From Blasia pusilla (taxonomy: Eukaryota): DNA of 64,000 nucleotides. This document shows, in pieces, positions 1 through 32,028 of this stretch (its first letter is position 1; each line of letters starts with the position of its first letter). The DNA lies in assembly GCA_050084515.1 (NCBI GenBank), contig CM114271.1, positions 29,140,001 through 29,204,000 of the forward strand, given 5' to 3'. The translations under genes were made by a program, and so were the position numbers. The notes beneath the pieces were generated by a model. That model saw only the letters and a list, made by a program, of their open reading frames with translations, was not told where the DNA came from and did no database searches.

Positions 1-3000
1 TGTTGATCCTTTGGCCGCCGAACGTTTGGTACATGCTGCCTGACACATTAAGTCAAAACGTGAAAGGCATGAAAATGAGCAATAGCAAAGAGTACGCGTA
101 CCATCCATGGAATCACCTTGAAGCGTGTCACAAGGGGATTGGAGAATACTTCATTCTCCGAATGAATGTAGCATGGTGAGTATAGATAATGGATGTATCA
201 TATACACAAAAGGAGCGAAAAAATGGAATAAGAGTGTTGTACTCTTGCATAATATAACTCCTCAAATATGGTCGCACGAGAAACTGAATTGAATACATTC
301 GCCATATCCACTTGAATTAGAACTCAGGTTGCACACGAAAAAAGTCCGTGTCCACGTCCATGAACTTATGTGCATCCCTAGGACAGACATGTCCGTGCAA
401 GCGCGAGTACGTGCGGCCCGCACGAGAGCCTACCTCGCCCGTAACGTACACACGGACTTGGCCCGCCCGCACCTAGTCTAAGAACCCGTCACCCTTTTTG
501 TAGCCTGCATTGGCGGGCCCTAAGCCCGCATTAGTCTGTAGGCCCAATCCCGCCCTACATGGGTCCTACGTGGGCTTAGGGCGGGCCGATGTGGGCTACG
601 TACCGGCTGATTCCTGTCCGCCTCCCTTAATCTGATTTATGCTCTCTATGTGGCCTTGACACAAATTGGGTTAGAAAAGAATAATTCCCAGTCAAGGTGA
701 CTTGTCAGTGAATTTAAACAGAAAGCTAGAGATATGATCATGTTTGTTCATGAATTTACTCTCTAACTACATGCGTTGTTTCACAACCAAATGCATTGTT
801 TTCTCACCATGTTGGTCATGTAAGGTCCATATTCATCTTTTCCTAACCACATTTGTAGTTTCATAACTACCGTAACATCAAATGCTTCGTGAGCAAGTCT
901 AGGATTTTGAGACCATGGTCTTGTTGGGAACTTACTATATGTGAAATCAAGTAAAATTTTAAATTAGGTTAGGATGTTTCAGATTTTGCAATTAGAACTA
1001 GCATTTCCCAAATTAGCATTTCCCAAATTTCAATTTTGTTGAATAGAATTAAAGAGATTTCTCACAATGGTCCTACAACCAATTGCATTTATGCATGATA
1101 TCTTTGCTTTTCTTTTTACGTATTTTGTTGAGAATATGACTAATTTGGGCTAAAAATTCTACCATGCCCATTTTTCATAAAAAATTTTGAATTTCAGTCT
1201 TTTCAAAAATAATAAATTTTGCATCATGCTCCAAAACGGAGAAAATCAACTATTTTAGAAGATCAAAGGTTTACAAAGTTTTCGAATGTGTATTCTCTTG
1301 GGGTAATCTTACGTAGAATGTTGAGGAATCTATACAATTTTGCATATCCCGCACTCCATGGAAAATTGGGAAATAAAGATAATTCAAAGAGGGCTAAATA
1401 AGTGGACAAAAAGTTGAAATATTGCATCAAGAAGATGGTCAATCTAAATCTAGGCACGTGTCAAGGAAAAGGGGGGGTGGGGGGTTGCTTATTAAGGCAT
1501 TAGAGGCAAAAGCCAAGGTATCTAGTATTTTGATTAAGACCGTTGGTCCTACAAATATTATGAATGCTTGATATCTTCTTCACCCCATTTTAGGATTTTT
1601 GTGGAGTATATGATAGACATGTACTTATCTCAAACATATATCTGAATATCTATAGTAAAAGAATATTTTTAAAATTCTTATGCATTATTAGTTCAAAATA
1701 TAATGTGTATCATGTCGCGATTCCCAATACTATTATAACCCATAAAGATTTTTCATTCTTTTGGAGATATGATTATCCTATAAGATTGAAAAGAGTCTTG
1801 TGTCCATTAATAATATTAAACAAAGAAAAAACATAAATTTTTTTATCAAAATGAACCTCACATATTGATCAATGGTTTGAATTGGGATAGAATAGGATCA
1901 CTCATTTAATAGATTGGTTTTGCAATATTTGGAGGAACTAAAAATTTTCATCTACACTTTAGTCCACTTTCATATATGGATTCTACAGATATTCCCACGA
2001 GAGATCAAGAATTGATCAAAATAGTTTTGCCGGAGTCCGAACCTCAAACAAATTAATGGATACTCCTCTTGTTGAGGCATTAGCTATTGTTGATTAGAAA
2101 CCTCTTTAGTCACAAGAGGAGTGTCTCATATTGGAGGTCCTCATGGAGATCGTTGCTGGTTTGAGGGCTGATCTTGTAACAGGGAGTTCTTCATGTATGG
2201 TGGATGACAAGAGTGTGGACATTAGTGTAGTAGAACTGCTGTCCATTGTACCTCTGACATATCCTTTACTATCATTTGGGGAATTTTACACAATTTTGTG
2301 GAACATGGTGGCCAAGCTGAAACCTTTTTTCCATAGTTCGATGGGACAAAAGGTGTGGGATGGCGGGCAACACAACATTCTCTTGGATTCATATGATCCT
2401 GGGATGAAATGTATTTGGGAGGAGAGGAGATCTTGCTACATCAACCTTGGAGGGGATCTAAGAAGGAAGGTATAAACTCAAAGAACATTCATGCAAATGT
2501 TATTTTTTGAGCGTTGGGGGATGGATATGGATTAGAGTACTATGCAGATCGGGACAAGTAACACAAGGTGCTACAATGAGGACTTTGGAAAACTTCTGAC
2601 GATCACCAAAAAAGAAGGAACCATCTACATTATCCACACCTAACCAAATGAGCATGAATCCATGTCTCAGGGAAACATGATCTATTTTCTTTGGGAGGAA
2701 TTATCCCAAAATCTACCAAGGCATCAACCCCAAGCAATTGAGTTATGGCAACTAGGGAGGCATCCAATGCATCATTTCCTTTGCTTGCTCACATGAATAG
2801 AGCTTACCCCTCAACGCAACAATCTCTCTTCACCAACACATCAGTGCTATTGAACAAAAGTGGTTCTACATCCTAGCCATCTTTGAGTTATATCCAACCC
2901 ACGCATTGTTGAGAAGGACTCGGCCTCCTTCTCAACGATTTACCATTTTGGATTGCCTTTGGAACTCACTTTAAGGAATTTATGAAATGGAAAGGGAAGA

Positions 3001-3349
3001 AATTAATTGAAATATTTTTTGTGCAGATGATGGAGCAAATTGTCTAACATATCAACTCTCTCAAAGTTGAGATGGTGAGAGCTATGATGAAATGAAAGTC
3101 AAACCTCATAACAAGAAAATCATTGAGGACGTGAGGGGTAGGGGACGTGTTTTTCAGAAATATGATAATAGTGTGAGGCAAGAATCCAAGGGAAAAATAA
3201 GATGATGTCGAACATGATTGATGTTTGCGAAAAGACTGACGAATACGTGACACTGTAACATTGAAGGGTAAATCCATCTTGATTGTGAATCAAATGAAGG
3301 TGGATATCTATTTGGGATCTGACTGGAAGATGGTTACTTGAAAGTCATG

Positions 3350-3870
3350 TCTAGAGTTCTTCCATTTTTCATTTAATATCTAGGTGGAAATTTGGAGAGT
3401 TTGTTTAAATATTCTCTTAGGGTTTAGAGGCATGGCCGCATGGGGGTATCATCTCCCAAAGTCTCATGATTTTCTAGTTTGTGACTAGAAAGCAAGGCCA
3501 AGAATATAAGAAGATAAAGGAAGAAGAGGAATTTACTTGGGGATTCACTTGGCTTACATTACTTTTCTCATTCATCTTGGGCCAAGACTTGTTTCTAGCA
3601 TCCATCCGATTGAAGTAAAACTCAATGGGCTTGGTCTTGGTAATCTACTCTCCCACTTTAATGGTTTTGAGTTTGTAATATTGACTCTAGGATGTAACTA
3701 AAAATCCAAGATCATGTTTGTTATCCCATATTTTTATTCAATCTCTAGATGGGAATTTAGAGAGTTTATTCTTCCATGGATTTTGGAGGCATGGAGGCAT
3801 CATCTCACAAAGTTTCATGATTTTGGAGATTGTGACAAAAAAGCAGGTCCAAGAATAGAAGAAGAGGTGG
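3350..3870. repeat. Degenerate ~160-bp direct repeat pair (~3360-3520 and ~3725-3870) in TE debris
   Basis: tcatctcccaaagtctcatgatttt...gtgac...ccaagaata vs tcatctcacaaagtttcatgatttt...gtgac...ccaagaata. Confidence 0.7.
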
Positions 3871-4607
3871 GCATTAGGAGAGGATTCAATCTCAAGAATT
3901 CAAATGGTTGATGTATCCATGGAAGAAGTTTGGATATTTTTCATTTTTCCAATTAAAAACTTCTTAGAGGATACATAATGCTTAGAGGGATAATTTTTTC
4001 ACTTCTAAGGATGAGGGAACTCAAAATTTTACCTTCAAGGTGAAATTTTGAGCAGAAAAGTCATAATCTAGTTTGTGTAGAACCACATGATAATGGTTAT
4101 ATATCCTCACGCCTTAGTGGGGAGGAGTTGCCTCATCTTGGACGTTGAAAGGAGTGGCTAGGATGGTGTATAGGGTTACATTTAGGGTACCTTTTTGAAT
4201 GTCTCTAATGAGACAATCCTCTAGATCTTGGAAGATCCAACTGTCTATGTTTTTAGATGGATGGGGAGGGGATGGTTGCATAGGGAAGGGGTAGTGTGGG
4301 AGCCCTGAATGGGAGCTTCATTAATTACTAGTTTTGCTACAGAGTCAATTGGAAGGCCCAAATTGTAACCTCAAAGGCCATAAAGATATTGCATGCAGTT
4401 CAAAATTGGAGAGCTTCAAATTGGATCCTAGGTGAGTTAACATGCACATGACGAGCTATTTTTGTATCTACTCATAACGTTTTCATTTCTTCTCTATGTT
4501 GTTTTTGGTTTCGGAAATCTGACATTACGATGTTTGTAAGTGGGATATTATCAATCATCACTAGGTAAAGATGCGTTGGAAAAAATCTACACTATTGAAT
4601 CCAGGTT

Positions 4608-5267
4608 TGGACTCTCCATCGAGTTGTTGTGCGCATACACATTGCTAGACAACATACATCGCTGTCACCAAACACACACACAAACACGCACAATCCCGTG
4701 CTAACTCATGGCATCCAAACAACAAGACAAGACGTACCAAAATATCTCCAATCAAAGTAAGATCCAATCTCTCTCTACACCATCTCACACCATAGCTCTC
4801 AAAGGTGTGCACTCTCTCTCTTGTCAAACCAAACCCACTCTCCTAATGAGAGGCTTGGATTACACTCACAAGGCAAGGGACCATAGCTCCGCCGCCTCAT
4901 GCCAAGAGGTTCAACAAAGAGAGAATGAGCTCTCAAGCTCTCTCTCATTGTGGTATACCCCTCCCCTCTCCCAAGCTCTCTCCATGGTAACCTATTCTTC
5001 CAAGTCACCTCCTTGGCTCCTGACCTGATGTAGGAGGTCAAGGTCCACTTACCACAAAATAGAAAGTCGATCATATACTCAAAATGATACTTACCTAAAA
5101 TAGTAAGTTCCTCAATATGGCTCCAAATGAGCCGAAACGAAGGGAAAACCTGCTCTCTGAGGTTTCTAGGAGCCTCAGCCGGTCATCCTCGACCTATTAA
5201 GCTTGTCCTCCACTACTCATAAAGGTGCTCTACTAGATCTCACCGATCTATCCTAAAAGACGTGACA
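4608..5267 (-). repeat. Putative 3' LTR of the Gypsy element (TGTCAC...GTCCA on the minus strand); may instead begin at 5395 after a G-run
   Basis: The reverse complement of 5267-4760 aligns by eye with 38787-39280 (e.g. tgtcacgtcttttaggatagatc vs tgttatgtcttttaggaaagatc; ccaagcctctcatt.ggagagtgg), which precedes gag in the second copy. TG...CA ends. An AGGGGGG tract at 5398-5404 (minus) resembles a polypurine tract. Confidence 0.6.
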
Positions 5268-5575
5268 ACTCTCATGCGCATGCACATCGATACACAACAT
5301 ACATCGTTGTCATCGAACACACACACAAACACGCACCATCCCATGCTAACTCATGGCATCCAAAAAACGAGACAAGAAGTACCAAAATATCTCCAATCCC
5401 CCCTAGCTAGTGGTTAGGTCCCTCTAACTCCAGATAGCCATCTATCCCTACCTACCATGACATACATCTCTTGGTCGCTAAGAGCTAGAAGGCCGGGTGC
5501 TCATGTGGCCCCATCGTTAGTCGTCTTCTTGTCATCCATGTCACACATACCAATCGGAATGTAGAACTACCTACT

Positions 5576-5722
5576 CTATGTGCATTTGGGACACATCCAT
5601 CGTCCTTGAGGAACCCTAGTGAGAGGTGGCGTCAAACATGCCATATGCCATCCTCTCGAACACCCATCACAGACTAGCATTGTGGCCGCACCACGGGCAT
5701 AACCACACAATATACAACGCAA
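5576..5722 (-). other. PHD finger at the polyprotein C-terminus
   Basis: CILC...MLVCDGCSRGWHMACLTPPLTRVPQGRWMCPKC matches the canonical C4HC3 PHD spacing, with the conserved W before the last CxxC. Confidence 0.95.
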
Positions 5723-6960
5723 GCCCGAAGGAACTACTGCTAAGCTTAGATCTATTGTACCATCAATGTTAGGAAGGTGACATGGCGCACAATTACGCAC
5801 ATGGTCCTTCCATACCATACCATCACGTCCCTCCAGCAAGAGAACACCGGATGACAAAACTTCACGCACTCTCACGATAGTGCGCCCTGCAGTCACATCC
5901 AACGTCGTCGGTGCCGTCTGCTGCAAGAAGACATAATCTCCCTGATGAAACCTCCCGATAGTTGGTCGATAACCACCATCCCAAATAGTCGCATACCTCA
6001 ACGTATCCCGATGTTGCGCAATCGCCAAGTTCTTGAACGCCATGGGCATCACTCTACATAACAACTCAGCCCTCTGAGAACATGCTCACATCCATACATC
6101 TGGGTCATCAAGGTCCAGCACCTCACCAGCCTCTCGACGAATGGCCGCTCGTAAATCTGGCTCTCGGCCATAAAGTAGCAAGTACGGTGAAAAAGACGCT
6201 AAGGATGCCTGCCTAGTGAATATGTATCCCATCGCCAACCACGTCAACTGGAGGTTCCAATCTCCTAGGTTACCTCTATGCAAGCCATACTTGCGTAAAC
6301 CCCTCTTCACCGTCTGCACAACTCTCTCCGCTAATCCATCCGCCTCAAGATGATCTCGCGAGGCCGTGCGGTGGTCGATCAACGCCTGATCACACAAGGC
6401 CTGGAACTCACCGCAAAACTTGGTACACTTGTCTGTCAACACCTCAACCGGTACGCCATAATGACTCAACACTCTGTCAAGGAAGGCATAAGCTACTCCC
6501 TCACTCGCTTTGTCAAGCAATTCAACCAACTCGATCCACTTCGAGAAGTGCTCGACCATCACCAACACATAACGACTGTGACGCTTTTTCAAAGGCAAAG
6601 GTCCTGCAAAATCCAAACTCCATCTATACCCTAAGCCCATGATCGGTAATGGATGCAATTGTGGAGTTGGAGCATTGAACGATGCTCAGACCCGATCACA
6701 CACCATACACTTGGCAACAAAGTGATGAACGTCAGTCTCCATGCCTCGCCAGCAATACTGAATCAGGAGCAAGTTGTACGTCGGCTTCACCCCAAAGTGA
6801 CCCAACTCCTCGTGGGCATGCTGCACTAGTCGTACTCTCTGTAAAGGATGTGGCACTACGTGTACTCTATCATCCTTCCAAACCATCAAAACATGTGTCC
6901 CCTCCCAACGAAACCGTCTAGCCCGCTGTAGGATCCGATCCCGCTCTCTAGCACCCACGA
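5723..6960 (-). pseudogene. Retrotransposon integrase (HHCC zinc-binding, DDE core, C-terminal FHQGDYV segment)
   Basis: AHEELGHFG...CMVC; WSLDFAG, VLTD, DGLAERVVQTVK; SPYLLLYGREP in ORFs 6686-6958, 6086-6658 and 5576-6064. Confidence 0.95.
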
Positions 6961-7199
6961 TGCTCGCAACGCTACGAGTACTCCAAGACTACTCCATCAT
7001 CATGAATATCTCGGCCACCTGTGGTCTCCTCACTGGCCTTGGGATCCAAGGACTCTCCACTAGACCTCGCCATCGAAGTCTCCACACTTTGGCTCTCCAT
7101 AGCCAACATGCCTAAATAGGCTGACGCGTGCCATCCTGGCACTGACTCCTCATCACTCTCTCCATGCCATCGAGCTCTAGTCGCATCTCGATGACTCAG

Positions 7200-7600
7200 G
7201 CATGGGTTACGACTCAACCCATCTGCATCCTAGTGGACCGTCCCAGGTCTATGTACCACCTGAAAATCATACTCCTGCAACAACAGAGCCCATCTGGCAA
7301 GCTTCCCTGTAAGCTTGTCGGACTCCATCAACCACTTTAGTGGTTGATGATCAGTGATGATGGTAAAGGGGTTGCCAAATAAGTAACACCTGAAATACGC
7401 GATAGCCCACACTGCAGCCAAGCACTCACCCTCATACGAGCTGTACTTTGCCTCTACAACATTGTTCAAGCGGCTAGCGTAAGCCACCACGAACTCTCTA
7501 CCCTCATCATTATGCTGGGTGAGCACCGCTCCAAGCCCCAACATACTCCAATCTGTGTGTAGTTGGAAAGGACGCCCCTTGATCGAACTCCTCAAGATGG
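7200..7600 (-). pseudogene. Retrotransposon RNase H
   Basis: FQLHTDWSMLGLGAVL, YSSYEGECLAAVWAI, ITDHQPLKWL, RWALLLQEYDF, HRPG..DADGLSR. Confidence 0.95.
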
Positions 7601-8645
7601 ACGTAGACATCAACCTGTCCTTAAGCAATTGAAATGCTTGCTCTTGCTCATCCCCCTTGTACCACTCGTGATCCACCTTGGTTAGCAAGGTCAGCGGCTT
7701 TGCAATCAAACTGAATCCCTTGACGTACCGCCGATAGAAGTTCGCCAATCCCATGAATGCACGAACACGGCTCACATCTGTAGGGCATGGAATACGTGAG
7801 ATAGCCTCTACCTTCGTTTGCTGAATACCAAGGCCCCTTGGGTATATCGTATGACCCAAGTACTCAATATGTTTGTAGAAGAACTTGCACTTGCCTGGAT
7901 GTAGCTTTAGCCCATGTAATTGCAATCATCAAAATACCTCCTCTAGATGTCGCTCATGCTCCTCAACCGTGGCGCTAAAGACTACAATGTCATCAATATA
8001 ACATCTAGAAAAATCCAGACCAGCCAAGATCTTATTCATGACCTTCTGAAACTCAGCCACGGCATTCTTTAACCCAAATGGTAAGAACCGCCACTAATAC
8101 AAACAATCCTTCCCGTGAGGATCGATGCCCCAAAATGCCATCTTTTGCCTGTCCTTCAATCTGATAGGCAATTGATGATATCCGACTCACAAATCCAATG
8201 AACTGAAGACCTTTGCGTGACCAATCGCATCAAAGATCTCCTCAGGGGTGGGCATGGCATACCTATCGGACTTCATCTGCCGATTGATAGGTCGGTAATC
8301 CCCACACATCCACCTATCCGTCCAGTTGCCATGCACATCCTTCTTGGCGGGCATGACAGTGGTAGATGCATACTCCCCATGCGACATCTCCACTAGTCTT
8401 GCTCCAACCAAGTCCTGGCTCCTACTGTGAATCAGATCCCTCTCCATATCACTGTACCTCTAGGGTCGTCGGAAGATCGGCGTATTACTCGAGAACTCAA
8501 TGCACATCCCTAGTCCCTTCAGCTTAATCAAATCCTCCATGCTAAACGCAAAGCAGCTCCTATAACTCCTGAGGAACTGATGTATTCGGCGCCGCTCTCC
8601 TCTTGTCAACTTAGGGCCCATATTTGGCTCCCAAGTCTCCATCAT
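7601..8645 (-). pseudogene. Retrotransposon reverse transcriptase
   Basis: MCGDYRPINR, VFSSLDL*VGYHQL, LPFGLKNA, CYIDDIVVFS (YIDD at ~7989-8000), KCKFF..IEYLGH; several premature stops. Confidence 0.95.
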
Positions 8646-8984
8646 GACTTCGGTAGGACTCTCCGGCGTGGGTATTGGTGGTTGCTATGGTGCAACCCTG
8701 TCTCAAACACCAACACTCCACCGCTCTTCTGCAACCAGCTACAAACTCTGATCTCCTCCACATGCAGTGCCCGGAATCACTCTCGATGTTGTGGCTATCA
8801 TCTCCTGGCGTACCTGCAAAACATCCCAAGAAGTCCAAGGGTGTCTTTCATGATCTCCCCTGGTGTGTCGACCTCCTCGAGTCTCGCCCCAACCACTGCC
8901 TCCACCGTCTCGGTAGGTATAGGGCTCACCAACGCAACCGCTGTGATCTGTCGTGATCTCATCCGATGCTGCTCAGCCACTCCC

Positions 8985-9929
8985 AAGTTGAAGATCCATG
9001 TCAAGCAGTTCAGGTCCATCGCTTGACCCAAGACATGGCGTCGTGATGCCTCTGACACTGACGGTACTGTTGTCACTCCTGTTGGAAATCCCATCGCTCG
9101 CTCTCTCTCGTGGGCGTTGGGCTCCACCAACCGCTGAACCTGGTCATCCCAAACCAAGGCAAGATCGGCCTCCTTGTATGGATAGGAAGCGGGAAAACTC
9201 ACGAAGGTGGGAAAGGCTGCCCGCGGCCTGCCTACCTTGTTGACCACAGTCAACGGTGGTCGATCATCGTGCCCCATTGCGTATGATCGACGACCTGGAT
9301 CCAGAATGGAATCCACTAACAAATGGGAGTGGCGCTCCACTCTCACATACGCCCTTCGTAACACCGCATGGGGCACCAAGTTGGTCCACCATAGAGGCGG
9401 GCGATGGGCTCTAGAACCTACACTCGCGGTATCCAAGAACATTGTTGGGCCGATCCATGCACGCACGTGATGAGCACTCGTCACCAACCGTGACCTGGAG
9501 TCTCCTAAGATCGGCACATTCTCCAGAATGTAGGCTGGACAACGAGACTGGTGCTTCTGCAACTGACATAAGACCCTCAACATCTCCCAAGAAAACCTAG
9601 ACCGAGTGTCAGCCAACCCCTTGCCTCGTCCTGCACTGGATTGGCCCTGACATGGCTAACCGGCAATGACCAAATCAATGGTCCCTACTCGCTATAAGTC
9701 CTGCGCCCCCAACAACAAAATATTCCTCGGTAGGGAACTCTGGTAACCCCTCTACCGTGGACATAGATAATAAGTCGGGAAAACGTTGGCGTAATTGGGC
9801 CACATATCATAGTGAGACGCGCCTCGCAACATCATCACTCTCCACATACAGGTACTGTTGTACTCGCACTTCTGCCTGTAAAATAGCAGCTAACCCGGTG
9901 CTAATCCCTCCAAAGAGATCTAACACTCA
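8985..9929 (-). pseudogene. C5 DNA cytosine methyltransferase catalytic domain (DNMT3-like) inside the Gypsy polyprotein
   Basis: Hand translation: motif I *VLDLFGGISTGL (from 9926); II YLYVESD; IV IDLVIAG*PCQG (PC at 9655-9650); V GLADTRS; VI YILENV (E at 9523); VIII SRAHRPPLWWTN (~9380-9415); IX EPNAHERERAMGFPTGVT (~9071-9125); X RRHVLGQAMDL (~9010-9045). Four stops and one frameshift (~9748). Confidence 0.92.
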
Positions 9930-10361
9930 AAAATCCTCCTCCGGGGTACACCACACAATGGGTGTGGTATCCAAGGGTGTCATCGTAGCACTCCCTGCTA
10001 CTTCGGGTTCCTCAGACCCGTCATGCTCTGGTGTAAATGCCTCGCTCCACGCGGTCTGCACGTGCTCATCTGCCAATCGTCGAAGCTCCCCAGTCAAGCC
10101 CCACAGCGGCACCTCTCCTTCACGGAATAATGCGGCTACCATAACACTCCTCTCCATAGAAATTTCAGGAACAGGAGTATCCCTTGCATAGACATGTCCC
10201 TCAATCAAATCACTAGGCCAAGTGATGGCACCGCTAAATGTTGCTAAGGTCGCCATCTCTCCTGGCCGTTGCTCAATCATTGCACTTGTGAATCAAACGA
10301 GTAATGAGCTAAGGCGCCCATCACCTGACTACCATCTTGGTGTGTAGGACGTTGACTCCTC

Positions 10362-10784
10362 CTAGTAATCCAGGGCAAATCCCATCAAGTATAACACTGC
10401 TCCACCAACCAAGACGTCGTAGGACTCTACATCAATCACTATCGCCTTGGCTCGCACCACGGACTCATCTGTAGGATGTCCCGGGCGAATCCTCACCACG
10501 ACCTCTTGTCCGGTGAGATACTGTGTGGTACTCGCTCCACCCAAGGATGTCTGTATCCGGAATGGACAACGCTCCACATCGGCTCTCATAAAGCCCAATC
10601 CTTTGAATGACGCTTTCCCCAACATCAAGGGTTGCACTCTTGAATCCAACAAGACGCAATACGGACTAAAAGCTCTACCTCCGAGACTCACCAATTGGAA
10701 GACCTCTCCCCGGTTATCGAGCAACGCAACACCAGGAGAAGCCATGGCATGCTCTATCACGGGTTTAGCGGGCATCTCCGCCAT
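10362..10784 (-). pseudogene. Retropepsin-type aspartic protease
   Basis: VLLDSRVQPLM (degenerate D-S-G-A) and YDVLVGG (hydrophobic-hydrophobic-G motif), located between Gag and the MTase. Confidence 0.8.
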
Positions 10785-11489
10785 CCTAGCAGCCGCAGCC
10801 TGCTATGAATCTGACGTGGATGGCCCGAGCATCCGCTCCAAGGGCAGGTCCATCACCTCCTCTCCAATCACCTCTGAATGTGATGCAAGAACTCCAACTC
10901 CACGCTCATATAGCGTAGCGGCCAGCCAAAAAGCCTGGGCGGGCGTACCCCCCAACGTCATAACATCGGAAGCAGAAAATAAAGGAGCGCGGTACACAAT
11001 GGTGGCCGCCCCCAACAACGTGCTCGACACATGCCCCTCCTGAGCATCAACAATAGGAGTCGTCGCACTCGCTTCTCCCATCGCCCTCCATGCCTGCACA
11101 CCAACAACATCACCAACTCTCCAAGAAATTTGATCAGGACCCATCGATACGGTCTTTATCGCCTCGGACAACGTGAAGGACTGAGGAAGCCTAGTCTGTT
11201 TCCTGGCTTCCACTCGCTGTGGATCCAACTCTGCGGCTACTCCACGCGTCGCAACTGCGGGTGCCTCTATTTGGGCAACCCCGCACATCCAACCAGGATC
11301 CTCCATATCTCTGGCTGCTCCATATGATGTCGATGTCACGGATCCGACATCGGGTAATCTCAATGACATAGCGGCAATCTGGTCCAGTAGCTGATGTATC
11401 TGAGCAGCCATCCTAGCCTTACGCCCGGCATCTCCCTCGACGCGTCTAGGTTGCGGGACTCTACCTCCTCCACGGGCAGCTCCACCACC

Positions 11490-12691
11490 CTATCGGGCAA
11501 CTCCAGCTCCTCGTCCCCCAACAAGACCACCTGGTGCACGATCTCTAGGCCCACCCGGACCGGCTGCTCGCTCTGGTGCCCTCTTTGGCCCTTGGTCCGG
11601 ACGTAGCTCAGGATGTAAAATCAAACACCTAGCACGTGTATGACCATACCTCTGACAATAGTCATAGTGATAACCTACTGGTGCAGCACCATCTCCTCCT
11701 CCATGCTGAGCCACACGTCCATTACCTTGACGAATGCAATTGCGCTGATGATGGGCTCCACCATATGACCAACAAGTAATAGTAGGCGATTGCTGTTGAA
11801 CCGCATATGAAGGTGTAGGTCTCTGTGGCACAGCCTCTCGATATCCTCCTTGAGCTCGTGGGACCACAGTCGACCTATCTTGGAGTTCATGTTGCTGCAT
11901 AGGTACTGTAGGCAATCGTGAATGCTCTCGCCCAGAACCCATGGTGGCTACGCTCTCCTCCGCCATGTTGCGCTCAATGTTCTCTACAATCCTAAAAACA
12001 TCTCTCAACGTAAGGGAGGTATTCATAAGAAGCATCCCCTCCCGCACCGATGTCCCAAGGTCCGGTCCAGCATCGCGTACCATGACTGGATAGCCTGAGC
12101 CTCTGTCACCCCCTGAGTGACGTTGATCAATCGGCGCAAGCGAGTGTAAGCCTCACACAAACTATCACCCGGGCGCCTCTGGAAGTCGTGGATGCTCCGC
12201 AACTTCTCCGTTCGTACCCCCTAGTAGCTCGCCCTCAACTCAACCACGGGGTTGAACCTCAGACAAACCCGACTAGACGATGCAATTGCTCCAGTGCGAG
12301 TGACCCCTCCTAAAACATCACTAGTGGAAGAGGAAGAAGCCTCTCCAAACTCCTCCTCATCTGGGAATGGCTCGGTCCATGACACATAGTGTGGGTCATA
12401 GTAGAGCCTCCACGCCTCGATCTCACGTGCATATCTCTGAGAGAACTTATGGTAATCGTCCATGGGCGCCCCCTCTAAATGCTGGAACATACCGTTCCAT
12501 GCTGTAAACGGGTTGAACTCTCTAGAGTTCTTGGCCCGTTGGGAGTCGCACCACCTCCTAAACTCTACTATGAAATCGTGCAACTCAATCGTGCCTACTT
12601 CACTTGAAAACCTACACGGTCCTCTACCCCGGTCGTCCATCTTGTACGCCCAACTGGTAGGACCACTCATAATGTGTGGCGATGTGCTCAC
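11490..12691 (-). pseudogene. Gag (capsid and two degenerate CCHC zinc knuckles)
   Basis: FQRRPGDSLCEAYTRL (major-homology-like; ~12185-12138, stop-flanked frame); knuckles TCWSYGGAHHQRNC and YDYCQRYGHTRARC, each with one C>Y change. Confidence 0.85.
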
Positions 12692-13810
12692 AAACTCCTC
12701 TACATGCTCCCCCTCGTCTGAAGGAGATCGAGGTGGTCTCTCACGTGGAGACCCTCGAAACCTCGCACCACTCCGAGTAAACCCTCCAGAACTACTCTTA
12801 AGTCCACTACCTAACCTCTCAAAATCCTGAAAGGATGCCGTGATGGCCCTCGTGCCCTCTCACACGATCACTCTCAACCTTGTGAGTAATCCCTCAATCA
12901 CTCATCCCAAACATTCGGCACTCAATCTACACTCTCCCTCCCCGAGACGTGTAACATGCGGCAATAAGCGGCGTTGTGCGGCAAATCAACCAGACTATCA
13001 TCTCATCGACAACCTACCCTCAACTCCGGACATCCCACACAGGTCTATGTCCCCTAAACCACATACATAAATGATGCTCTCAGCATCCACACAACCCAAT
13101 ATCCCCAAATAAACTACCAAAATCCCAGAATCCCTCATACGTGCTGGATAAAGGACCAGAATGGGTAACCTGAACACATGTCGATCTCGCTCCCCAGCAA
13201 CTGCAAATCTCAACCCCAACTCGGTCGTGGAGACAACTCCTCCAATCAGCAAGTCATACTCCTCCCGTACTAACGCTGCTCAAAACTCCTCGATAGACAG
13301 TGCGGTTCCAACCAATCGGTGCGGCGTTGCAGGCGGCACGGAACGGCTACGAACGGCACAGCCCTCGATGGTGAAATGCGGCACTCGGCGGCATACCCTC
13401 CTCAATCAACAATAAACCCACACTCTGCTCCGCAATGACGGTGGGACTCCGCGATCGAGACGATGCGGTGCGGCCAAAATCGGCACGGCGCGGCAATCAA
13501 CGGCGCGTTGCGGCTACGGGCGTCACGGCACGGTACTCGATCGTCATCGAGCGGCTACCAATCACAACATAGCAATATGAAATCAAAACTCAAACACCAT
13601 AACCGGAGGTCATCTTCCATCATTGGTTGACAACGAAACTTCGATGACGGTGGCGGCCAAAACAAAGTAAGTGGTGGCGACGCAAATCAGAGAATCAACG
13701 AACGTCGTGGAAGACCCTACACTCCGTAATGGCGGCAATGGCAACCAAAGGGTGGACAATGGCCAAATGCGGCTCTAAGCAACAGCAACGGCCGACGATG
13801 GCCGGTGGCC

Positions 13811-13895
13811 GGTGGACCGTTGACGGTGATGGTTGACCGTTGATGGTGACGATGGACCGTTGATAGTGATGGTTGACCATTGACGGTGACGGTGA
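13811..13895. repeat. ~20-bp tandem repeat (GACCGTTGAYRGTGAYGRTK, ~4 copies) in the retrotransposon 5' leader
   Basis: ggaccgttgacggtgatggt / tgaccgttgatggtgacgat / ggaccgttgatagtgatggt / tgaccattgacggtgacggt read directly. Confidence 0.85.
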
Positions 13896-15810
13896 CTATG
13901 ACGGCGACGGCCGCCGCCGGCATGGCGGCTAGTTTAGGGTTTGAACAATTTAACCCTAAAAATTGCCTAGCAATGGAAATTTTTCAAGATTGACCATAAC
14001 TTCTTACTCGCAATCCAAATTGTGCATTGTTTAATGCACAACATGCACAACTTGATGATCTACGATGGCATCAAAAAATATTTGGAATTTAACATTCTAG
14101 TAAAAACTTATAGGGATTGTTGTAAAGCCCAATGTCTCTTTCTCCTACACAAAATTTGGCAACGCTTCCGCGCTGATTTCTCCCAACCAAAATGTAAAAC
14201 CTATAAAAATACAAATCAGCAAGCTATATGGTACTCCCGAGAGCACCAGCATGGGGAAACCCTCCCCCATAATCAATCCCTATCAGAAATTAGGCAGCGC
14301 TTCCGCGTGCCATTCTTCCACAAAAAAAATTGGCAAATGCAAAGAACAATCAAAGCAGCCCTTGCTCCGGTGAGCACTCCCATGAGCCGCTTGGACTCAT
14401 TCATCTCCTCCATTCTCCACTTGGACTCATCCCAGCGATCGAAACCAACGTAGCATAAAACTCATTGTGCAAAGCAAAGAGGGGAAAATTAACATTTCCT
14501 AGAGTTTAAAATATTTAATTACAGTGGTGAATTTATATTATTATTGGAATATATTATTGGAGAGTGTCTCATTTTGAGATCTTCTCCTTTTTTACTAGTG
14601 TCTTTTTTTTATCCGATAGTATTGTTCATTGTCTAAGCCGATGAGATGACTCGAATGGGAATTTAAAGTTATTAAAAAAAATGAATGGAAAGGAAGAAGT
14701 TATTTGTGGGATGGAAGATTTGTAAACAAAGAAGAAAAGAGGTTTTACTTATGAACTTCGCGGATATGCATGCTATACCAAATGTGCACACCCGCGCATA
14801 TTTGTCGATATTGATACACCTAAAAATCTATACTATAATGCGAGGAGGGGGGGGTTACCTCTTATGGTTTTTTTTTTTTCCCAAAGAAGTGAAGCCTTCC
14901 ATAAGCAATCATCTTGAAATGGCCGCTTTGAAGAAAAAGTTAAAACAAATAAAAAAAATCGAATCGATGGGAAAGTTTGGAGGGCTTCCATTTGAACGGC
15001 TTATATTTGAATGAGCCATGATTTTTTTTCTTTACTTGGGACACTTGTCAGTTCGGAAGTAAAAGAGGAAACTTTTTGATGTAACCAACCAAATTAAGAC
15101 ACCTATGAACTTCCTAGCTCTAGCTCATTGCACATAAATCATCCGCGTCTCTTAGTTGGAGTAGACTCAACGTAGGTGTCAAGGAACTGAAGAAGGAGCT
15201 GGCGAAGAAGGTGGCGGCAAAGTGGAGGCAGCATCAAGGTGTTATCAAAAATTTGGAGAAAGCTTATCGACCGAAGAGGGTAAATCTCTGTTTCCAAGTA
15301 GGAATTGGTTTGGATTGTTTTACTTCCGCGTGGGTTCCTCCATGTGAAAGAGGAGAAGCGCTCTCTCGCTCACAAAATCTTCGAACAAGCTGGCTGCAAC
15401 CAAATTCCAAGAATTCGTGACTTTTTAGTGTAGGAATTACATTGGTTCAGATCAGACTTCGTAAGTTTGCGATTTCCCATTCTGATTTGCTTCAGAGGAG
15501 TGAAGAACTAGCCGCACTACATCTTTGTGTCAACGAATCACAGGGCGTCCCTGATTCACTTTATTCGCGCTGGCGTATCACAATCACGGGGAGTCTATGA
15601 TCGACTTTGTGTAGGCAGGCCTCGATGTATATCACGTAACCTCGATTCCTTAAGTTCCACACGATGAGAAACTCATCATGTGGAACTAAAGGACTTGCTT
15701 CCTACTTCCGTCCTCTTACCGCTCAAAATTTTTTGAATACGGGACTGTTATCTGCAGAGGTGGGGAACCAGTTCGACCAAGAATTCTATGAAAAGTCTCG
15801 AAAGGCCAGT

Positions 15811-17485: not shown

Positions 17486-20240
17486 TTGAGCCTAACTTAT
17501 GCCATGTCAATTCTCTCATTGAGCTACAAGAGGCCGTTAATTGTGAAAGAAATTGTAATAATTACGAGTCCTGAATATGTGGTAGAGAGAGATGAGCATA
17601 GATTTTCATTATCTCACTCACAACAAAAACGAAATTTTTTTGATGTGGACTCTAAATTTTCTTCTGCTATTTCAAATGGTTTCAATGAGACTGAGGAGGT
17701 TAGAGAAGTCTCAATAGGCCAAGAAATTTTGATTACTCTCAATAGTAATAAGAGTTACTCTATAGATAGTTGCCCTCTTGAAGATCTTGACGATGGGGAA
17801 TATTCTTCTACTTCCCTCTATGATTCAGAGGGATGGTATGTTGGTGATGAGTTTGACCTGGAATATAGGCGTATGGATTATGCAGATTTAGACATTAGTG
17901 ATGATAGTCGAGATATTGGAGATAAGTAGCCAAAAGAGTACTATATATTGTTTATATTCAATTAATCATCAAAAAACCATCTTCGTTTTGTTTTCAGATA
18001 TGTCTGTTTGAGATTGTTGAGTTGAGCAAACGATCAAGTTTCATTTCTTTGGGAGTGGAGTGACTCAAAAAAGTAAGTCTTCTCTGCTTGTGTACTAATA
18101 TTCATTTGTGGAGATTTAGTATCCTTTTCTATTGAGTATTTATTTTATTATTTCAAAATATTTATTTTATTAAAATAATTGTATGGATAATGCAGGATAC
18201 TTTATAAATGAGTGTTGAAGATTTACGCTTTAGCGATGGTGAGTTCTACGTTCCTCTTGATGAACAAGAAAGGGATTATACACCTATAGATGTCGACATA
18301 GTAGAGGTAATACAAATATCAAGTCCGAAGTATGTTCCATCACCGATCATTGAAAATAGGAATAATGCTTCAAGTCCTGGCTATGTTCCATCGCCGATTT
18401 TTTAAAACAGGGATAAGGCTTCAAGTCCTAGCTATGTACCATTTCCGATTTTTGAAAATGGGATTAATGCTCCTAATGTTAGTATGAGCCCTTTGAGAAA
18501 TGATCAGAGTTGTAGTTATGATGAGAGTACATCTAGGATTTTAACCACGCTTGTGGTGAATCATCATTGTATTTCACAAGGAGTAGTTGGAGGTCAGGAG
18601 GGAGAAGAAGATATAAATTCCACACATGATTGCATCCCTTCCTCGGACCCTATAGCATCTAGCCATTCATTTGTGCGTGATTGTTGCGGGTCGGGGTCAT
18701 GGGAAATTAGTGATTGTCATACAATTTGCTCGGAGGACTCAAGTGAGACGAGTACGGCTGAGTCTCATTGCCCGTTAGAATGATTTTCCCATTTCAGATT
18801 TTTATAAAAACTTAAGTTATGTGTTGCTCTATTTTTTATATAGAATATAATATTCACGTACCAAGACTTGAGTTTAAGCTTTTTTGCAAATTTTTTTCTT
18901 TTTTTTCTAATATTTTTTGATATATTGTCAATACATATTTTTCTTGGATGGTTGATTTTGTCACAAGATGGATGAATCTCAAGAGGAACCATCGAGGCGG
19001 AATGAAAAAAGGCCATTCGCAGACATCACCAATGTAGTCTTTTTACCTAATGTGGAGCATGATCACCACATTTCATGTAGTCCACCATCTCCTATGCGGA
19101 TTTCGGAGGAAACAGAGAAGCTTGCATATAAAAAGGCTAGAAGGGTTGCATCTCAAAGAAACAGAAGGGCGCTTCAAGATATACGATTTGTAACTCATTC
19201 AACGACTTTGTCATCTCCACTGTAAGGATGCTTTGCATTATGATTATATAATGATATCGTAACCATATGTGCACACTCTAGATTTGTTGTGTGACTTTAA
19301 TATCTTTCATGTTTGTGCTATAGACTTCCAAATCCATCGAACCCGCAACGGTTACGTGATATACATCAAATTGTGAGAGCTCAAGGACAAAAGCAAAGAC
19401 ATGCCAAATTAGTTCAATTGAGATCTATTGAAGCTATTGTGAATGTTCCTTTGATGGAAGAATTACAACCACCCATTATCGATGACTCATCTGGCACAAA
19501 TAGTATAAGGTATTTATTTATGTATAACATTTCTACCTTTTCTTAAAAATATATTTAGAATTTTATTTCCTATTTTGACTTTTCTTATTCTTTGTCCAGG
19601 TTGGTAGCAACACCTACCAATGGCAATCTTCATGCTTCCATAGACACTACATCATCTCCCATGTATGTTTCTTCCACTTATTAATTTCTTATTTTTGATT
19701 GGTCTTTTTTGAAGTTGAATTTTTTAATAGAATTATTATGATTTGATTTTTATAAATATTTTTTTTCTCAGTCTTCCACTTCCGTCCAACCCTCGAGGAT
19801 TACATGCTATGCTTCAAGTTGCACGAGCACAAGGCCAGAGAAGGAGGAACAATCTTCTTCCTACAGAAGAAGTCGAGGCCATGACTACTAATGACTTTCA
19901 TGCTCAAGCTAATATGAGGTATGCTTAAATTTATAAGGTGGTCTTAAATTTTTATGAATGATTTCTAATAACAACATTTTTTGCAGGCCAATAATGGTAC
20001 ATCATGAAGTTGAAGCTATTCCAAACTCTAGGACTGTGGTCGTACCATCTCCAATGTATATTTCTAAATTGTATATTCAAATTATAATATAGATATGTTT
20101 GTATGTATATTTATTTTTATTATAATCATATGTATTAATTTCTTAACCTCTACTTGCAGTCTTCCAATTCCTACCAATCCTCTACGATTATGTCACATGC
20201 GTCAAGTAGCTTGAGCTGAGGGCCAAAGAAGAAGACGTGC
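17486..20240 (+). pseudogene. Probable upstream exons of the Helitron protein (acidic, SP-rich, repeat-built N-terminal extension)
   Basis: Same-strand coding-like blocks separated by AT-rich GT-AG introns; the last block runs straight into the RepHel frame at 20240. Contains stops. No known domain recognised. Confidence 0.55.
18320..18470 (+). repeat. 51-bp coding tandem repeat x3 (SSPxYVPSPIxENxxxA)
   Basis: caagtcc recurs at 18320, 18371 and 18422. Confidence 0.9.
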
Positions 20241-23200
20241 TCATTTAGATGAAGTACATGAGTTTACAAATGTTGGTGATCCGTTGATAAGGAGTGATGC
20301 CAATGGATCTAATCGTGAAGGCCACATGGAAGTGAATGAAGACAATGTATATGCCTCGATTCCAAATGTGGGATCTTTTTTGGATGAAATACATGAGATT
20401 GCACATGTTGGCGATCTGTTGATAAGGAGTGATGCCACTGGAGCCAATTGTGAAGGCCACCTGGAAGGAAATGAAGACAATGTACATGCCTCAATTCCAA
20501 ATGTGGGATCTAGAAGGGTTGTGAATTTGAAAAAGTTGCTTAATATTGCACGTATTCCTAACTTTGAAGAAAAGCACATTCGAATTCTTAGGTTGGGAGA
20601 TCATATTGATAGTATGACTGGCCGTTTTAGTGTTGGACTTATAAATGTTATTTGTCCGAGTTGCAATGCTCTACATTGGAAGTGTGAGAGAGTGAAGTAT
20701 ACTAGGTTTATAAGCTCGCCTTTTGGTATGTGTTGTGGGCATGGTAAGATTCAATTACCATATTTGACAGCTTCACCTTCTATACTAGCAAAATTACTTT
20801 CTGGTAGGAGTTCAAATAGTCTTCATTTTTTGCGCAATGCACGTGCCTATAATAGTGCTCTTCAATTGGCATCTATTGGGGCCCATGTGACAGAGCAACG
20901 AGGTGGTACAGGAAACTTCAGGATTCAAGGTGGTGTATATCATTCTATTGGACCTCTTCATGCTGAAAGTGGTGCTCCTCCACAATTGCGCAGATTTATG
21001 TTCATGATGATGAGCATCAGATGGAATATAGAAGAAGGATTATGAGTGGAGATTACCGGGATCAATTGAGGCTAGAGATCTTAAGGGGATTACAAGATAT
21101 GTTACATGCCCATAATCCATATGTGGCTCTATTTCGAAATGTGGCTATTGATCCATGTAATTATGACTTCCACATTGTTCTTAAGGGTAGTAAGCGAGGT
21201 CTCGATGCGAAACGATACACCTTGCCTGTTGCTTCAGAGATTGCAACTATCTTGCCGGGAGATGGGAGTGAGCCAGTAGAAGGACGTGATATTATTGTTC
21301 GCTTACATGGAGGAGGAATTTTTCGTCTATCACATCTGAATGAAGCCTATATCCCATTGCACTTTGTTTTGCCTTTTGTTTATGGTGAAGCAGGTTGGCA
21401 TCCAGGAATACCTTTGCAAGTGCAACATGATCATAGACATGATGCGCCGTTAAGAGGGGATGCTATCATGGAGGAGGATGAAGATGATATTGTACAAGGG
21501 GGAATACAAGGTGAAGTTACCACTCATGAGGCGAGTTCAAAGACCATTACAGCTTTACAATTTGCTTCATTTAGACTTCAAATACGAGCTAACGCTATGG
21601 ATAATAATCGGTTGTTGAGGTTTAGTTGTCTTACTCAAGAATATATGGTGGATATGTATGCGACTATTGAAATGCAGAGGCTAACTTGGATACGATTGCA
21701 TCAAAAAGAGTTGAGAGCTGATTTATACCAAGGTGTCAGAGATGCCATGACTCGGCATGATGTGAACGGTCAAGGCTTAGGGAGACGTATTATCTTACCT
21801 TCGTCTTTCATACGAGGACCCCGTCACATGCATCAATTGTACCATGATGCTATGACCATTGTGAGACATTTTGGGAAGCCTGACTACTTTTTGACTATGA
21901 CTTGCAACCCTAAATGGCCTAAGATTACTTCTGCTCTGCTTCATGGGCAATCAACGTGTGATCGTCGTGACCTGGTTGTACATGTTTTCCAACAAAAGAA
22001 GAAGGAGTTATTGAGACTTATATTGGATAAGCATATTTTGGGTCGAGTAGTAGGATGCATTCATGTAGTCGAGTTCCAAAAGAGAGGGCTACCACATGTG
22101 CATATCCTAATTATTCTTGCTTCTGAGGATAAGCCAAGGACAACCTCTAATTTTGACGATATTATATCTGCTGAGATCCCCAATCCTATCACTCATCCTA
22201 GGCTACATTCTATTGTAAGAAATTGTATGATTCATGGTTGGTGTGGAGTAATACATCCAACTGCACCTTGCAAGGATAAAACGACAAAAATATGTTCCAA
22301 AGGATACCCAATGCCCTTTGCATCAATGACAATGGAGAATGAGGATGGATATCCTATTTATAAGAGGTAATTCATTGCTTTTGTTGTTTATTTCATGATT
22401 TAATGCTCTTTTATTAGTGTGTTATGTATTTTCCTCAACTACTAACAAGCTCTATATGTGTTTATGCAGGCGTGATAATGGCAGATTGATTAATAAGTCA
22501 AATCATGACTTCGATAATCGTTGGGTGGTTCCATACAATCCAATGTTATGTACTTTATTTGATTGTCATATAAATTTGGAAATAACAAATAGCATCTTGG
22601 CTGTAAAGTACTTTTATAAGTATGTATACAAGGGATCTGATGCCATATCATATACCTTGGCAAATACTACATCATGCGAGGATACTATTGATGAGACATC
22701 ATTATATCTTGATGCAAGGTATTTCGATCCTTCTATCTTTCAAGATCTCCCTATTTTTTCTTATGATATTATGTGGGAGCCTAACAATATTTATATTGTG
22801 TGGTATGAAGGTATGTTTCTTCTTCAGAAGCATGTTGGCGAATCTTCAAGTTTAGTCTACATGTAGAGCAACCAAGTATTATGAGATTGATTGTTCATCT
22901 TCCAGACAGTCAAATGGTATATTTTCATGGGCAAGATTCATTGGGTAATATTCTGGAGCAAAGTAAGGAAACCACTCTCACTCAATGGTTTGCAACAAAT
23001 GTTTCTGATTCGATTGCGCGACAATATCTTTATTTGGAGTTCCCTTCTCATTACTCTTGGAATAAGAAGCAATTGCATCTACGTAAACGTGCAAGAAAAG
23101 GATGTGGACATCCTATTGGACGTTTGTATATGACAAACCCAAGTAAAATTTCTATTCTCTGTTAGAATACAATTATTAAGGCAAAAATTTATTTTAAGTT

Positions 23201-30408: not shown

Positions 30409-32028
30409 TTAGCTAATGATTTGAACCCATGAAGCAACGCTCGGGATCCCGTCATTCACCACGAAGATCATGTAGTAACCAGAAGGTGCTACCATCTTAG
30501 TCGGTGGCGCAGTGACCGTCACTATGTAGACGTCGTCCTCCAGCGCTTCGGGTAACGTGGTTTCGAGAATCAAAAGCCGTTGACCTTGAGCATACGAGTG
30601 AGTCACGAACGGCGCGTTTGCAATATTCACTTCAATGTCTACCGGTGCATTCTCCAATGAGAATGTCACCGAGAAATCGGCCCCATGAGCGACGGTAGTA
30701 TTCATCGCGGTAACATTCGCTGGCCTCTTGTGGCTATTCGCAGGCGACAGGTAGGGCGGGGAGAAAGCCTCGATGCGTAACTCTGTAGGGTACGCGCCAT
30801 GGAAATAGTAGTACAGATGGGTATTGCTGCCAGCAGCCAAGATACGACCGTCGGGAAGGAGATTGGCTGTGGAGTGGTACATTCTGGGGATGGTGGTAGG
30901 AGCAAGAATAGTAAAGCGAGACCCTAGAGCACCGCCCGGACTGTAAAGGACGGGGTTCAACACGGCACCGCTGGCGAAGCCGAAGCCCTGCGACCCATTT
31001 AGCGCACCGTTGATGATGAGTACCTGTTTATCCGGCAGTAAAATCATGTCTCCCATACACCGACGAATAGGCATTTCCTCCATCAACCACGTAGGGTCTT
31101 CAGCGGTGACAGTCATCAGACCACATGATTGCAGCGCCTCCATGGTTAGCCTTCCGGGATTGCTGAATGCGCCAAGCTGTGAGCCACCGCAAATCAACAC
31201 TTGCACATCGCTGAAGTTGTTGTTGTGAAACAAAGGCAACACCACCGACGACCCGGCGGCAGGATAATTTCGGGGTCCGTCGGTGATGTTAGGCAGGGTC
31301 TTCAAGACTGTGTTGGTCTTGTAGTCGTATATGATCGATTGAGTACTTGCAAAGATCCAGAGGTTCCCGTCGGGCAGCAGGACCACAAAAGGATAATAAT
31401 TATTATGATCCCGGTTCTCGAAATAAGTGTCTCGCAGCAAATCCAGCTCAACTAGGCCCTGACCTGGATTCGGCGGCATGAACTCAAGCGTGTACACGTC
31501 TAATCCACCGATAACAATCTGTGTTCCATCCTCCAGCAACTGGTTTGTGGCGTACCACCTCCCTGCTTCCAGCTCCAGGTTGCTGTCTTCCACCCAATCG
31601 CAGGTGCCTCCAGGCGGACAAGGAGCGAAATATCGGACTTTTCTAATACCATCAGCATAGCCACCGGTCTGCACAAGCGTGCCATTAGCAGTCACTTGAC
31701 CCGATGAGCACCAAGTGTCAGTCTGAATGAAGAGAGGCCGGATGTGGTTGGACCCGGGAGTGAACTCCACCGAATGAGCGGTGCAGTCGGGATTCAGCCT
31801 CGTATCTTGAGTATCGTTGCGGCATCGCCCGTCCGGCAATTTGATCTGCGACGCACCGATGTCGGTTCTGTCGAGTAGAACCACCGTTCCAAAACGGGTC
31901 ACCTGAGAGTGCATGGATGCAATACCCGCATTCTGCACCAGAAGATCCCAACTCCCGTTCAGTGCATGGGATGTCCACACAGTAACCAAAAGGATAGCCA
32001 CCACTGCAAGTTTCTTGTACTCTGCCAT
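30409..32028 (-). CDS. GLOX: Glyoxal oxidase / aldehyde oxidase GLOX-like copper radical oxidase (AA5), secreted, intronless, 539 aa
   Basis: ATG at 32028 followed by a signal peptide (KKLAVVAILLVTVWTSHA); GIASMH, DTWCSSG, RWYATNQ, NYYPF, RNYP, RMYHS, FVTHS. The Cys/Tyr/Tyr/His/His copper-radical ligand set is intact; uninterrupted ORF. Confidence 0.95.
   Translation of the reverse strand: MAEYKKLAVVAILLVTVWTSHALNGSWDLLVQNAGIASMHSQVTRFGTVVLLDRTDIGASQIKLPDGRCRNDTQDTRLNPDCTAHSVEFTPGSNHIRPLFIQTDTWCSSGQVTANGTLVQTGGYADGIRKVRYFAPCPPGGTCDWVEDSNLELEAGRWYATNQLLEDGTQIVIGGLDVYTLEFMPPNPGQGLVELDLLRDTYFENRDHNNYYPFVVLLPDGNLWIFASTQSIIYDYKTNTVLKTLPNITDGPRNYPAAGSSVVLPLFHNNNFSDVQVLICGGSQLGAFSNPGRLTMEALQSCGLMTVTAEDPTWLMEEMPIRRCMGDMILLPDKQVLIINGALNGSQGFGFASGAVLNPVLYSPGGALGSRFTILAPTTIPRMYHSTANLLPDGRILAAGSNTHLYYYFHGAYPTELRIEAFSPPYLSPANSHKRPANVTAMNTTVAHGADFSVTFSLENAPVDIEVNIANAPFVTHSYAQGQRLLILETTLPEALEDDVYIVTVTAPPTKMVAPSGYYMIFVVNDGIPSVASWVQIIS

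Follow-up and report, generated by a model that had tools for sequence, protein, structure and literature searches.

A DNMT3-type cytosine methyltransferase domain in the Pol polyprotein of a Ty3/Gypsy retrotransposon family of bryophytes

A truncated retrotransposon copy and its methyltransferase domain

The window, by which we mean the whole 64-kb stretch of Blasia pusilla DNA that was analyzed, contains on the minus strand at positions 4630-14391 an old, inactive, 5′-truncated copy of an LTR retrotransposon of the Ty3/Gypsy type, an ordinary dead member of its family. The leader upstream of gag (12860-14391) was placed by repeat search and by a joint seen in RNA reads, and the element breaks off near 14391 and has no 5′ LTR. 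The gag region (10803-12859) comprises three open stretches that are 28-59% identical to gag in Marchantia proteins, and is also similar to a second element in the window. Next comes the protease region with a further stretch of about 120 residues (9927-10802), in one frame with four stops and 40-48% identical to Marchantia proteins; the place of the protease active site reads DSR (10652-10635). Beyond the methyltransferase domain lies a broken reverse transcriptase (7926-8684) that matches the corresponding parts of relatives at 56-83%, and a tblastn search with the relative P0014 covered 8633-6978 at 60% identity. The RNase H domain (7269-7652; PF17917, E = 1.4e-35) is followed by the zinc-binding part and rve core of the integrase (6086-6988; PF00665, E = 1.2e-10), pieces of which match relatives, and by a PHD finger at the extreme C-terminus of Pol (5582-5716; PF00628, E = 3e-11). 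The Pol stop codon (5578-5576) comes right after the PHD finger. All of these features lie on the minus strand. Pol thus has the order protease, reverse transcriptase, RNase H, integrase, with an integrase of the DDE (rve) type, and the methyltransferase is inserted between protease and reverse transcriptase.

The 3′ LTR (4754-5274, minus strand) matches 38787-39190, upstream of the leader of the second element. It stands between two direct repeats of 124 nt that are 90% identical to each other, B1 just upstream (5275-5398) and B2 downstream (4630-4753), both on the minus strand. RNA reads join position 4754 directly to 14389, as expected for the junction of LTR and leader in a complete copy. 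This joint fixes the end of the LTR at 4754, and since it links the LTR end to the start of the leader it indicates that complete copies have a 5′ LTR that has been lost from the window copy. The window holds no LTR pair, with no upstream repeat of 4754-5274 found, and inspection by eye after the inferred LTR-leader junction recognized no standard tRNA-complementary primer binding site. LTR pairs are found in relatives on metagenome contigs, with identities of 94% (L001), 92% (L044), 88% (L050) and 86% (L040); these LTRs are about 310-340 bp long and lie roughly 8.7 kb apart (e.g. L001 and L044). The B1 region is kept before the 3′ LTR of relatives, and the full B1-LTR-B2 layout is also present in L050 (96%, 11785-12353), in L039 (92%, 7606-8179) and, by cross-match, in L040. 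Part of the internal sequence is thus found again beyond the LTR, an arrangement reminiscent of the split direct repeats in DIRS-like elements. The ratio of observed to expected CpG is 0.77 in the element and 0.73 in the window, which is uninformative either way.

The methyltransferase domain occupies 8981-9926 on the minus strand, with its 3′ limit near 8981. It was assigned from PF00145 (E = 2.5e-9) and from alignments. The first-pass annotation had reported all six diagnostic motifs of a C5 cytosine methyltransferase in order on this strand, and each can now be placed by translation. Motif I, VLDLFGGISTGL, lies at 9926-9891; motif IV reads DLVIAG-stop-PCQG (9676-9644, with PCQ at 9655-9647); motif VI is ENV (9523-9515); motif VIII is AHRPPLWWTN (9409-9380); motif IX is ERERAMGFP (9109-9083); and motif X is RRHVLGQAMD (9043-9014). 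The domain is therefore complete and non-permuted. The motifs were aligned to nine homologues and to DNMT3A. The piece downstream of a frameshift (P0004, stops read as X) scores 37.4 bits against PF00145, where the cut-off is 22, a match well above what chance would give. No Pfam family was found at E ≤ 0.1 in either the N-terminal methyltransferase piece alone (P0001) or the protease piece (P0005). Their identity is taken from alignment to relatives, and the stretches of relatives homologous to the protease piece carry PF13650/PF13975. The roughly 120 residues that separate the protease core from motif I (10292-9927, minus strand) match no Pfam family and are conserved in relatives; they may form an N-terminal extension of the methyltransferase.

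The damage to the domain is as first described, i.e. four in-frame stops and one frameshift. The stops are at 9929-9927 (directly before motif I), 9809-9807, 9694-9692 and 9658-9656, and the frameshift is now placed at about 9752, after which a second frame carries motifs IV to X and continues to 8798. The frame read from 9929 with stops as X yields motif I, and it is the frame of the protease piece, as had been proposed; from 10802 to 9927 it is interrupted by stops alone, four in number. At the other end, the methyltransferase and reverse transcriptase are in different frames in the window copy, where a stop lies at 8800-8798 and the frame changes before 8684; relatives such as L013 have the two in one frame. 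Motif VIII is damaged as well: its second arginine, present in all nine aligned homologues, is proline in the window copy. The stops, the frameshift and this substitution leave no open reading frame able to yield the enzyme, and Pol is broken at further points. The window copy is a pseudogene that can make no enzyme, and the view that it is dead holds with more damage than was known, including the lost motif VIII arginine and the missing 5′ LTR.

The remainder of the window contains other features. A second, related element fragment on the plus strand (38787-42876) consists of an LTR-like stretch, a leader and gag only, ending before the protease, and has about 60-77% DNA identity to the first element. 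A Helitron on the plus strand (20215-25757) encodes a Helitron_like_N domain (E = 3e-54) followed by pieces of PIF1 helicase, and includes a 133-nt tandem duplication at 20244-20511. On the minus strand at 30409-32076 there is an uninterrupted glyoxal oxidase reading frame of 555 residues (PF07250, E = 1e-99; PF09118), apparently an intact host gene lying among the transposons. The reading frames at 51563-54098 (minus strand), with an MSS51 C-terminal domain and a MYND zinc finger, are probably exons of one host gene.

Kinship with DNMT3 and conservation of the domain

The sequence of P0004 was compared with those of proteins in the PDB. Its best match is the catalytic domain of DNMT3A (E = 3.8e-6), aligned in two stretches that cover motifs IV to VIII and IX to X. 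A family profile based on an alignment of 22 rows (A1) gave much the same answer, with DNMT3A (5.9e-26), DNMT3C (1.5e-23) and DNMT3B (4.4e-22) leading, followed by tobacco DRM (7.3e-16), Arabidopsis DRM2 (1.5e-11), M.HhaI (2.3e-8) and DNMT2 (1.6e-5). No chain named as DNMT1 or as a chromomethylase was present among the 57 PDB matches of the profile at E ≤ 1. P0054, a complete relative with 44% identity to the window piece, was also modeled with AlphaFold (pLDDT 94.2, pTM 0.92). A Foldseek search of the PDB with this model found DNMT3A (6w89_A) as the best match, with E = 1.2e-20 and TM scores of 0.70/0.79, and all 35 rows listed were entries for DNMT3A, B or C. DNMT3A thus heads the sequence, profile and fold searches alike, which bears out the DNMT3-like label given at first reading. 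Judged by profile and predicted fold, the window domain is of DNMT3 type, and closest to DNMT3 among the C5 methyltransferases of solved structure.

The resemblance to the animal DNMT3A, 3B and 3C catalytic domains extends to the order of the motifs, and motifs I, VIII, IX and X of the window-family domain align with DNMT3A residue by residue. The differences are that identity is only about 24%, that the stretch between motifs VIII and IX is longer in the retrotransposon family, and that the domain sits within a polyprotein, without PWWP or ADD domains. Pfam found neither of these in the 292 upstream residues (P0005) or in the relatives scanned. Plant DRM2 belongs to the same DNMT3/DRM superfamily and represents the second-best group in the profile search, but the motifs of DRM are circularly permuted whereas those of the window family run from I to X unrearranged.

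We examined selection by pairwise Nei-Gojobori comparison of codon alignments of natural copies, skipping stop codons. Between the window and the loci found on metagenome contigs the median dN/dS is 0.11 for the methyltransferase (18 pairs), compared with 0.13 for reverse transcriptase, 0.11 for RNase H, 0.10 for integrase and 0.26 for gag, all of them rough values given that dS is saturated at this depth (median 2.6 for the methyltransferase). For the protease piece there were just three such pairs, and these were not used. Among the loci themselves the median for the methyltransferase is 0.57 (444 pairs, dS 0.19), and those for the other parts are 0.40 (reverse transcriptase), 0.37 (RNase H), 0.39 (integrase), 0.72 (protease piece) and 0.88 (gag). 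Among these closer copies the methyltransferase ratio therefore exceeds those of reverse transcriptase, RNase H and integrase. The ratios among loci fit selection while the element is active with neutral decay after insertion. Rough as the deep values are, they indicate that the methyltransferase has been under purifying selection across the split between window and loci, as have reverse transcriptase, RNase H and integrase. The catalytic positions, i.e. the Cys and Gln of motif IV, the Glu of motif VI and both arginines of motif VIII, are kept in at least 90% of the 22 rows of A1. Stop-free copies with all motifs are present at three of the 39 loci that have the whole domain (L001, L007 and L013); the other 36 have stops or frame changes.

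A domain might be kept and yet no longer be a DNA methyltransferase. It could be a module that binds DNA or chromatin, it could act on RNA or an RNA-DNA hybrid, or it could be a regulatory partner in the manner of DNMT3L, which plays that role for DNMT3A. Enzyme activity in the window family is predicted from sequence, and some members of a sister group discussed below have altered motifs (ECQ or SCE in motif IV and ENT in motif VI, in P0061 and P0078). KnitGypsy-Dnmt3 moreover produced no methylation in yeast, in a test that its authors call inconclusive (PMC5890265). Against this, intact copies of the window group have kept motif I (the SAM-binding motif), PCQ, ENV and the two arginines of motif VIII, which would be unexpected for a purely structural role, and enzymes of the DNMT2 type are far weaker matches than DNMT3. 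We therefore regard loss of DNA methyltransferase function as unlikely, and prefer the reading of the domain as an enzyme in active copies.

Occurrence and gene order in the family

A search of longer proteins with the window methyltransferase gave 42 hits, led by one from Calypogeia fissa (64% identity, E = 2.6e-102); Marchantia polymorpha contributed many, and there were further hits in Sphagnum fallax and S. troendelagicum. A search of proteins of similar length brought in Marchantia paleacea and Riccia sorocarpa. An exhaustive search of cluster representatives matched 1324 of them at E ≤ 1e-3; at the stricter limits of 1e-10 and 1e-30 there were 483 and 80. Relative to Marchantia copies the window is 55-65% identical in the methyltransferase and 61-80% in reverse transcriptase and RNase H, with the lower values given above for gag and the protease piece. 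The order of domains was then read by mapping the window's own pieces onto 278 retrieved proteins. In 60 of these the methyltransferase adjoins protease and/or reverse transcriptase as in the window, and they include proteins of Marchantia, Calypogeia, Sphagnum and Closterium; in Closterium this order is seen in P0282 and P0283. It lies between RNase H and integrase in 141, and the remaining 77 are fragments with the methyltransferase only. A scan of metagenome contigs gave 64 loci, with protease directly before the methyltransferase in 49 and reverse transcriptase directly after it in 40; both junctions are present in 34, and the order RNase H-methyltransferase-integrase in one. At L013 gag to integrase can be read in a single frame, with two stops in 6.5 kb.

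These data bear upon whether the domain belongs to the element. The first-pass annotation considered it part of Pol rather than a later insertion, and named as the opposite case a private capture, in which a single copy acquired part of a host DNMT3 gene at the place between protease and reverse transcriptase while the family lacked the domain. The second element in the window, which shows no methyltransferase, might seem to favor such a capture, but it is a gag-only fragment that ends before the protease. The same order and junctions recur in 34 of the 64 loci, and in named proteins from Marchantia, Calypogeia, Sphagnum and Closterium, and the trees described below agree on their main split for methyltransferase and RNase H. 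One-off capture is refuted by this family-wide order in proteins and metagenome loci, and we give it a negligible chance of being correct. The DNMT3-type methyltransferase is instead a stable component of Pol, maintained by selection, in a lineage that includes liverworts, Sphagnum mosses and the alga Closterium.

The second gene order, RT-RNaseH-MTase-IN-PHD, is found under species names in chlorophytes (Haematococcus lacustris, Monoraphidium neglectum and Chromochloris zofingiensis). This sister group shares with the window family a homologous methyltransferase (33-41% identity), reverse transcriptase, RNase H, integrase and a C-terminal PHD finger, and differs in having the methyltransferase after RNase H where the window family has it before reverse transcriptase. 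One apparently intact member is L060, a metagenome contig with an uninterrupted reading frame of 1997 residues at 3-5993. In a tree of 84 methyltransferase rows one branch (SH-aLRT 99) parts the two orders, with the window, 35 rows of window order and three rows without assigned order on one side, and 36 rows of the other order plus nine without assigned order on the other. A tree of 48 RNase H rows has the same split (SH-aLRT 98). Both are unrooted trees from quick searches, with the other order sub-sampled (35 of 108 and 35 of 95). Because the two trees share their main split, the enzyme and the backbone appear to have diverged together. One capture followed by a move within Pol, and two separate captures, are equally possible origins of the two orders.

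The PHD finger ends Pol in both gene orders. Chromoviruses are Ty3/Gypsy elements with a chromodomain after the integrase, and the window family resembles them in having a chromatin-reader module fused to the integrase C-terminus, here a PHD finger in place of the chromodomain. Its best PDB matches are the fingers of CHD4, PHF12 and KDM5A/B, and there are also matches to KAT6A, DPF3, PHF21A, ATXR5, AIRE and UHRF1. Many of those PHD fingers recognize histone H3 whose lysine 4 is unmethylated. Should the same be true of the window family, the PHD finger would steer the element to chromatin that is also preferred by DNMT3 enzymes.

Related copies are transcribed. Three RNA runs, whose species label is that of the best-matching DNA run, each have about 3300 reads on 4600-14400 at a likeness of at least 90%. 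Nearly all are 90-95% alike, with four to nine per run at 99% or more, so that most must come from sister copies. First mates lie on the plus strand about 6- to 100-fold more often in most bins, the methyltransferase part included, where the counts are 9-43 (plus) and 0.2-4 (minus). Given the usual type of stranded library, this bias corresponds to RNA of the minus strand, the sense strand of the element. At the place of the first stop (9929) another letter is found in 40 of 41, 20 of 20 and 35 of 36 RNA reads, and in about half of the DNA depth. Most reads thus differ from the window copy there, and the stop is not general in the family. On the assumption of a stranded library, RNA of the sister copies reveals transcription of related copies in the sense direction; translation of an intact Pol is outside the reach of these data.

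Precedents, proposed role and meaning

The first-pass annotation pointed to retrotransposons carrying a DNMT in dinoflagellates and in Klebsormidium, and this precedent is correct, with both Klebsormidium and Symbiodinium elements described in de Mendoza 2018 (PMC5890265). According to the text of that paper, KnitGypsy-Dnmt3 of Klebsormidium nitens has an intron-less, non-rearranged DNMT3-type domain inside a Gypsy-type Pol reading frame, under purifying selection with Ka/Ks < 0.2, and is treated as an acquisition in the K. nitens lineage. In yeast it produced no methylation, a result that the authors call inconclusive. Compared by description, the likeness to the window family is close (a DNMT3-type domain within Gypsy Pol, no introns, purifying selection). 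The Fig. 4c legend ascribes to the Klebsormidium element a DIRS-like arrangement of repeats, which may be the same feature as the B1-LTR-B2 layout. The Klebsormidium element differs in its host, since the window family is in liverworts, Sphagnum and Closterium, and no protein named as from Klebsormidium was among the matches of our protein searches. The Symbiodinium elements SymbioDIRS-Dnmt3 and SymbioLINE-Dnmt are likewise retrotransposons bearing a DNMT, but are of other classes (a tyrosine-recombinase DIRS and a LINE) and from another host kingdom. The same text reports that the DNMT3 of SymbioDIRS-Dnmt3 methylates CG de novo in yeast.

The earlier statement that no land-plant case was known stands in part. 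Our literature search, which had subscription journals and supplements outside its scope, found no account of DNMT-bearing elements in land plants or chlorophytes. De Mendoza 2018 was the only paper it found that describes DNMT-bearing retrotransposons, and its Fig. 4c and Supplementary Figs 13-14 may already give the order of domains or contain sequences from bryophytes. The matched passages of PMC12344493, PMC11982613 and PMC9033089 contain no mention of such elements, and for six Marchantia gene identifiers there was no account in the literature searched. The implied rarity was overstated, however, in that the family is large in public sets; it is present, unremarked, in the public protein sets of Marchantia, Calypogeia, Riccia and Sphagnum. 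The kind of element is therefore already known from KnitGypsy-Dnmt3, and the absence of land-plant reports from print is provisional. From the sequences, the family appears much wider than the K. nitens acquisition that the passages of PMC5890265 describe.

We think it highly probable that the window holds a dead copy of a family with a gag-PR-MTase-RT-RNaseH-IN-PHD polyprotein, whose selected DNMT3-type methyltransferase would be a de novo enzyme in active copies. In such copies the methyltransferase would be made as part of Pol, and either released from it or active within it; as the first-pass annotation suggested, the element's protease might cut it out and it might be packaged in the particle. 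It would methylate cytosine de novo, at carbon 5, in the new DNA copy of the element, or alternatively in DNA at the insertion site or close to it. In this way the element would set its own methylation state, which could serve self-limitation or concealment, and the PHD finger at the C-terminus of the integrase may help to choose the chromatin that is entered. We propose this mechanism because the motifs are kept and because the DNMT3 carried by the Symbiodinium DIRS element has CG activity, as described in PMC5890265.

The enzyme might instead act chiefly on the host genome in trans, for example by damping defense genes or spreading heterochromatin, and not on the new copy of the element. Abundance of the family in the DNA run, together with its transcription, speaks for this reading, and effects on the host epigenome are raised in the text of de Mendoza 2018 (PMC5890265). 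The same source, however, describes the methylome of K. nitens as ordinary and plant-like despite the presence of such elements, and we consider a principal action in trans improbable. Methylation of the element's own new DNA, or of DNA at or close to its insertion site, remains our preferred reading.

A broader view can be put forward as speculation. A Gypsy lineage with DNMT3 and PHD domains might be ancient and widespread in the green plants, its gene order differing between streptophytes and chlorophytes, and might be still transcribed and possibly moving in bryophytes, where the enzyme would methylate new insertions. We would give this composite picture a rather low chance. If it were true, part of the de novo methylation of bryophytes would be transposon-encoded, and the Klebsormidium case would be the visible tip of a lineage.

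The interest of these observations rests with the family and not with the window copy. Transposons are normally the targets of DNA methylation, and an element with its own methyltransferase reverses this relation. The only case from the plant lineage that we found in print is a single alga, whose enzyme could not be shown to be active; here such elements prove abundant and conserved among bryophytes. Gene models annotated as 'DNMT3-like' in bryophytes may be fragments of transposon Pol. Marchantia polymorpha is a genetically tractable model. With the family present in Marchantia, what a transposon would gain from methylating DNA becomes testable in a laboratory plant.
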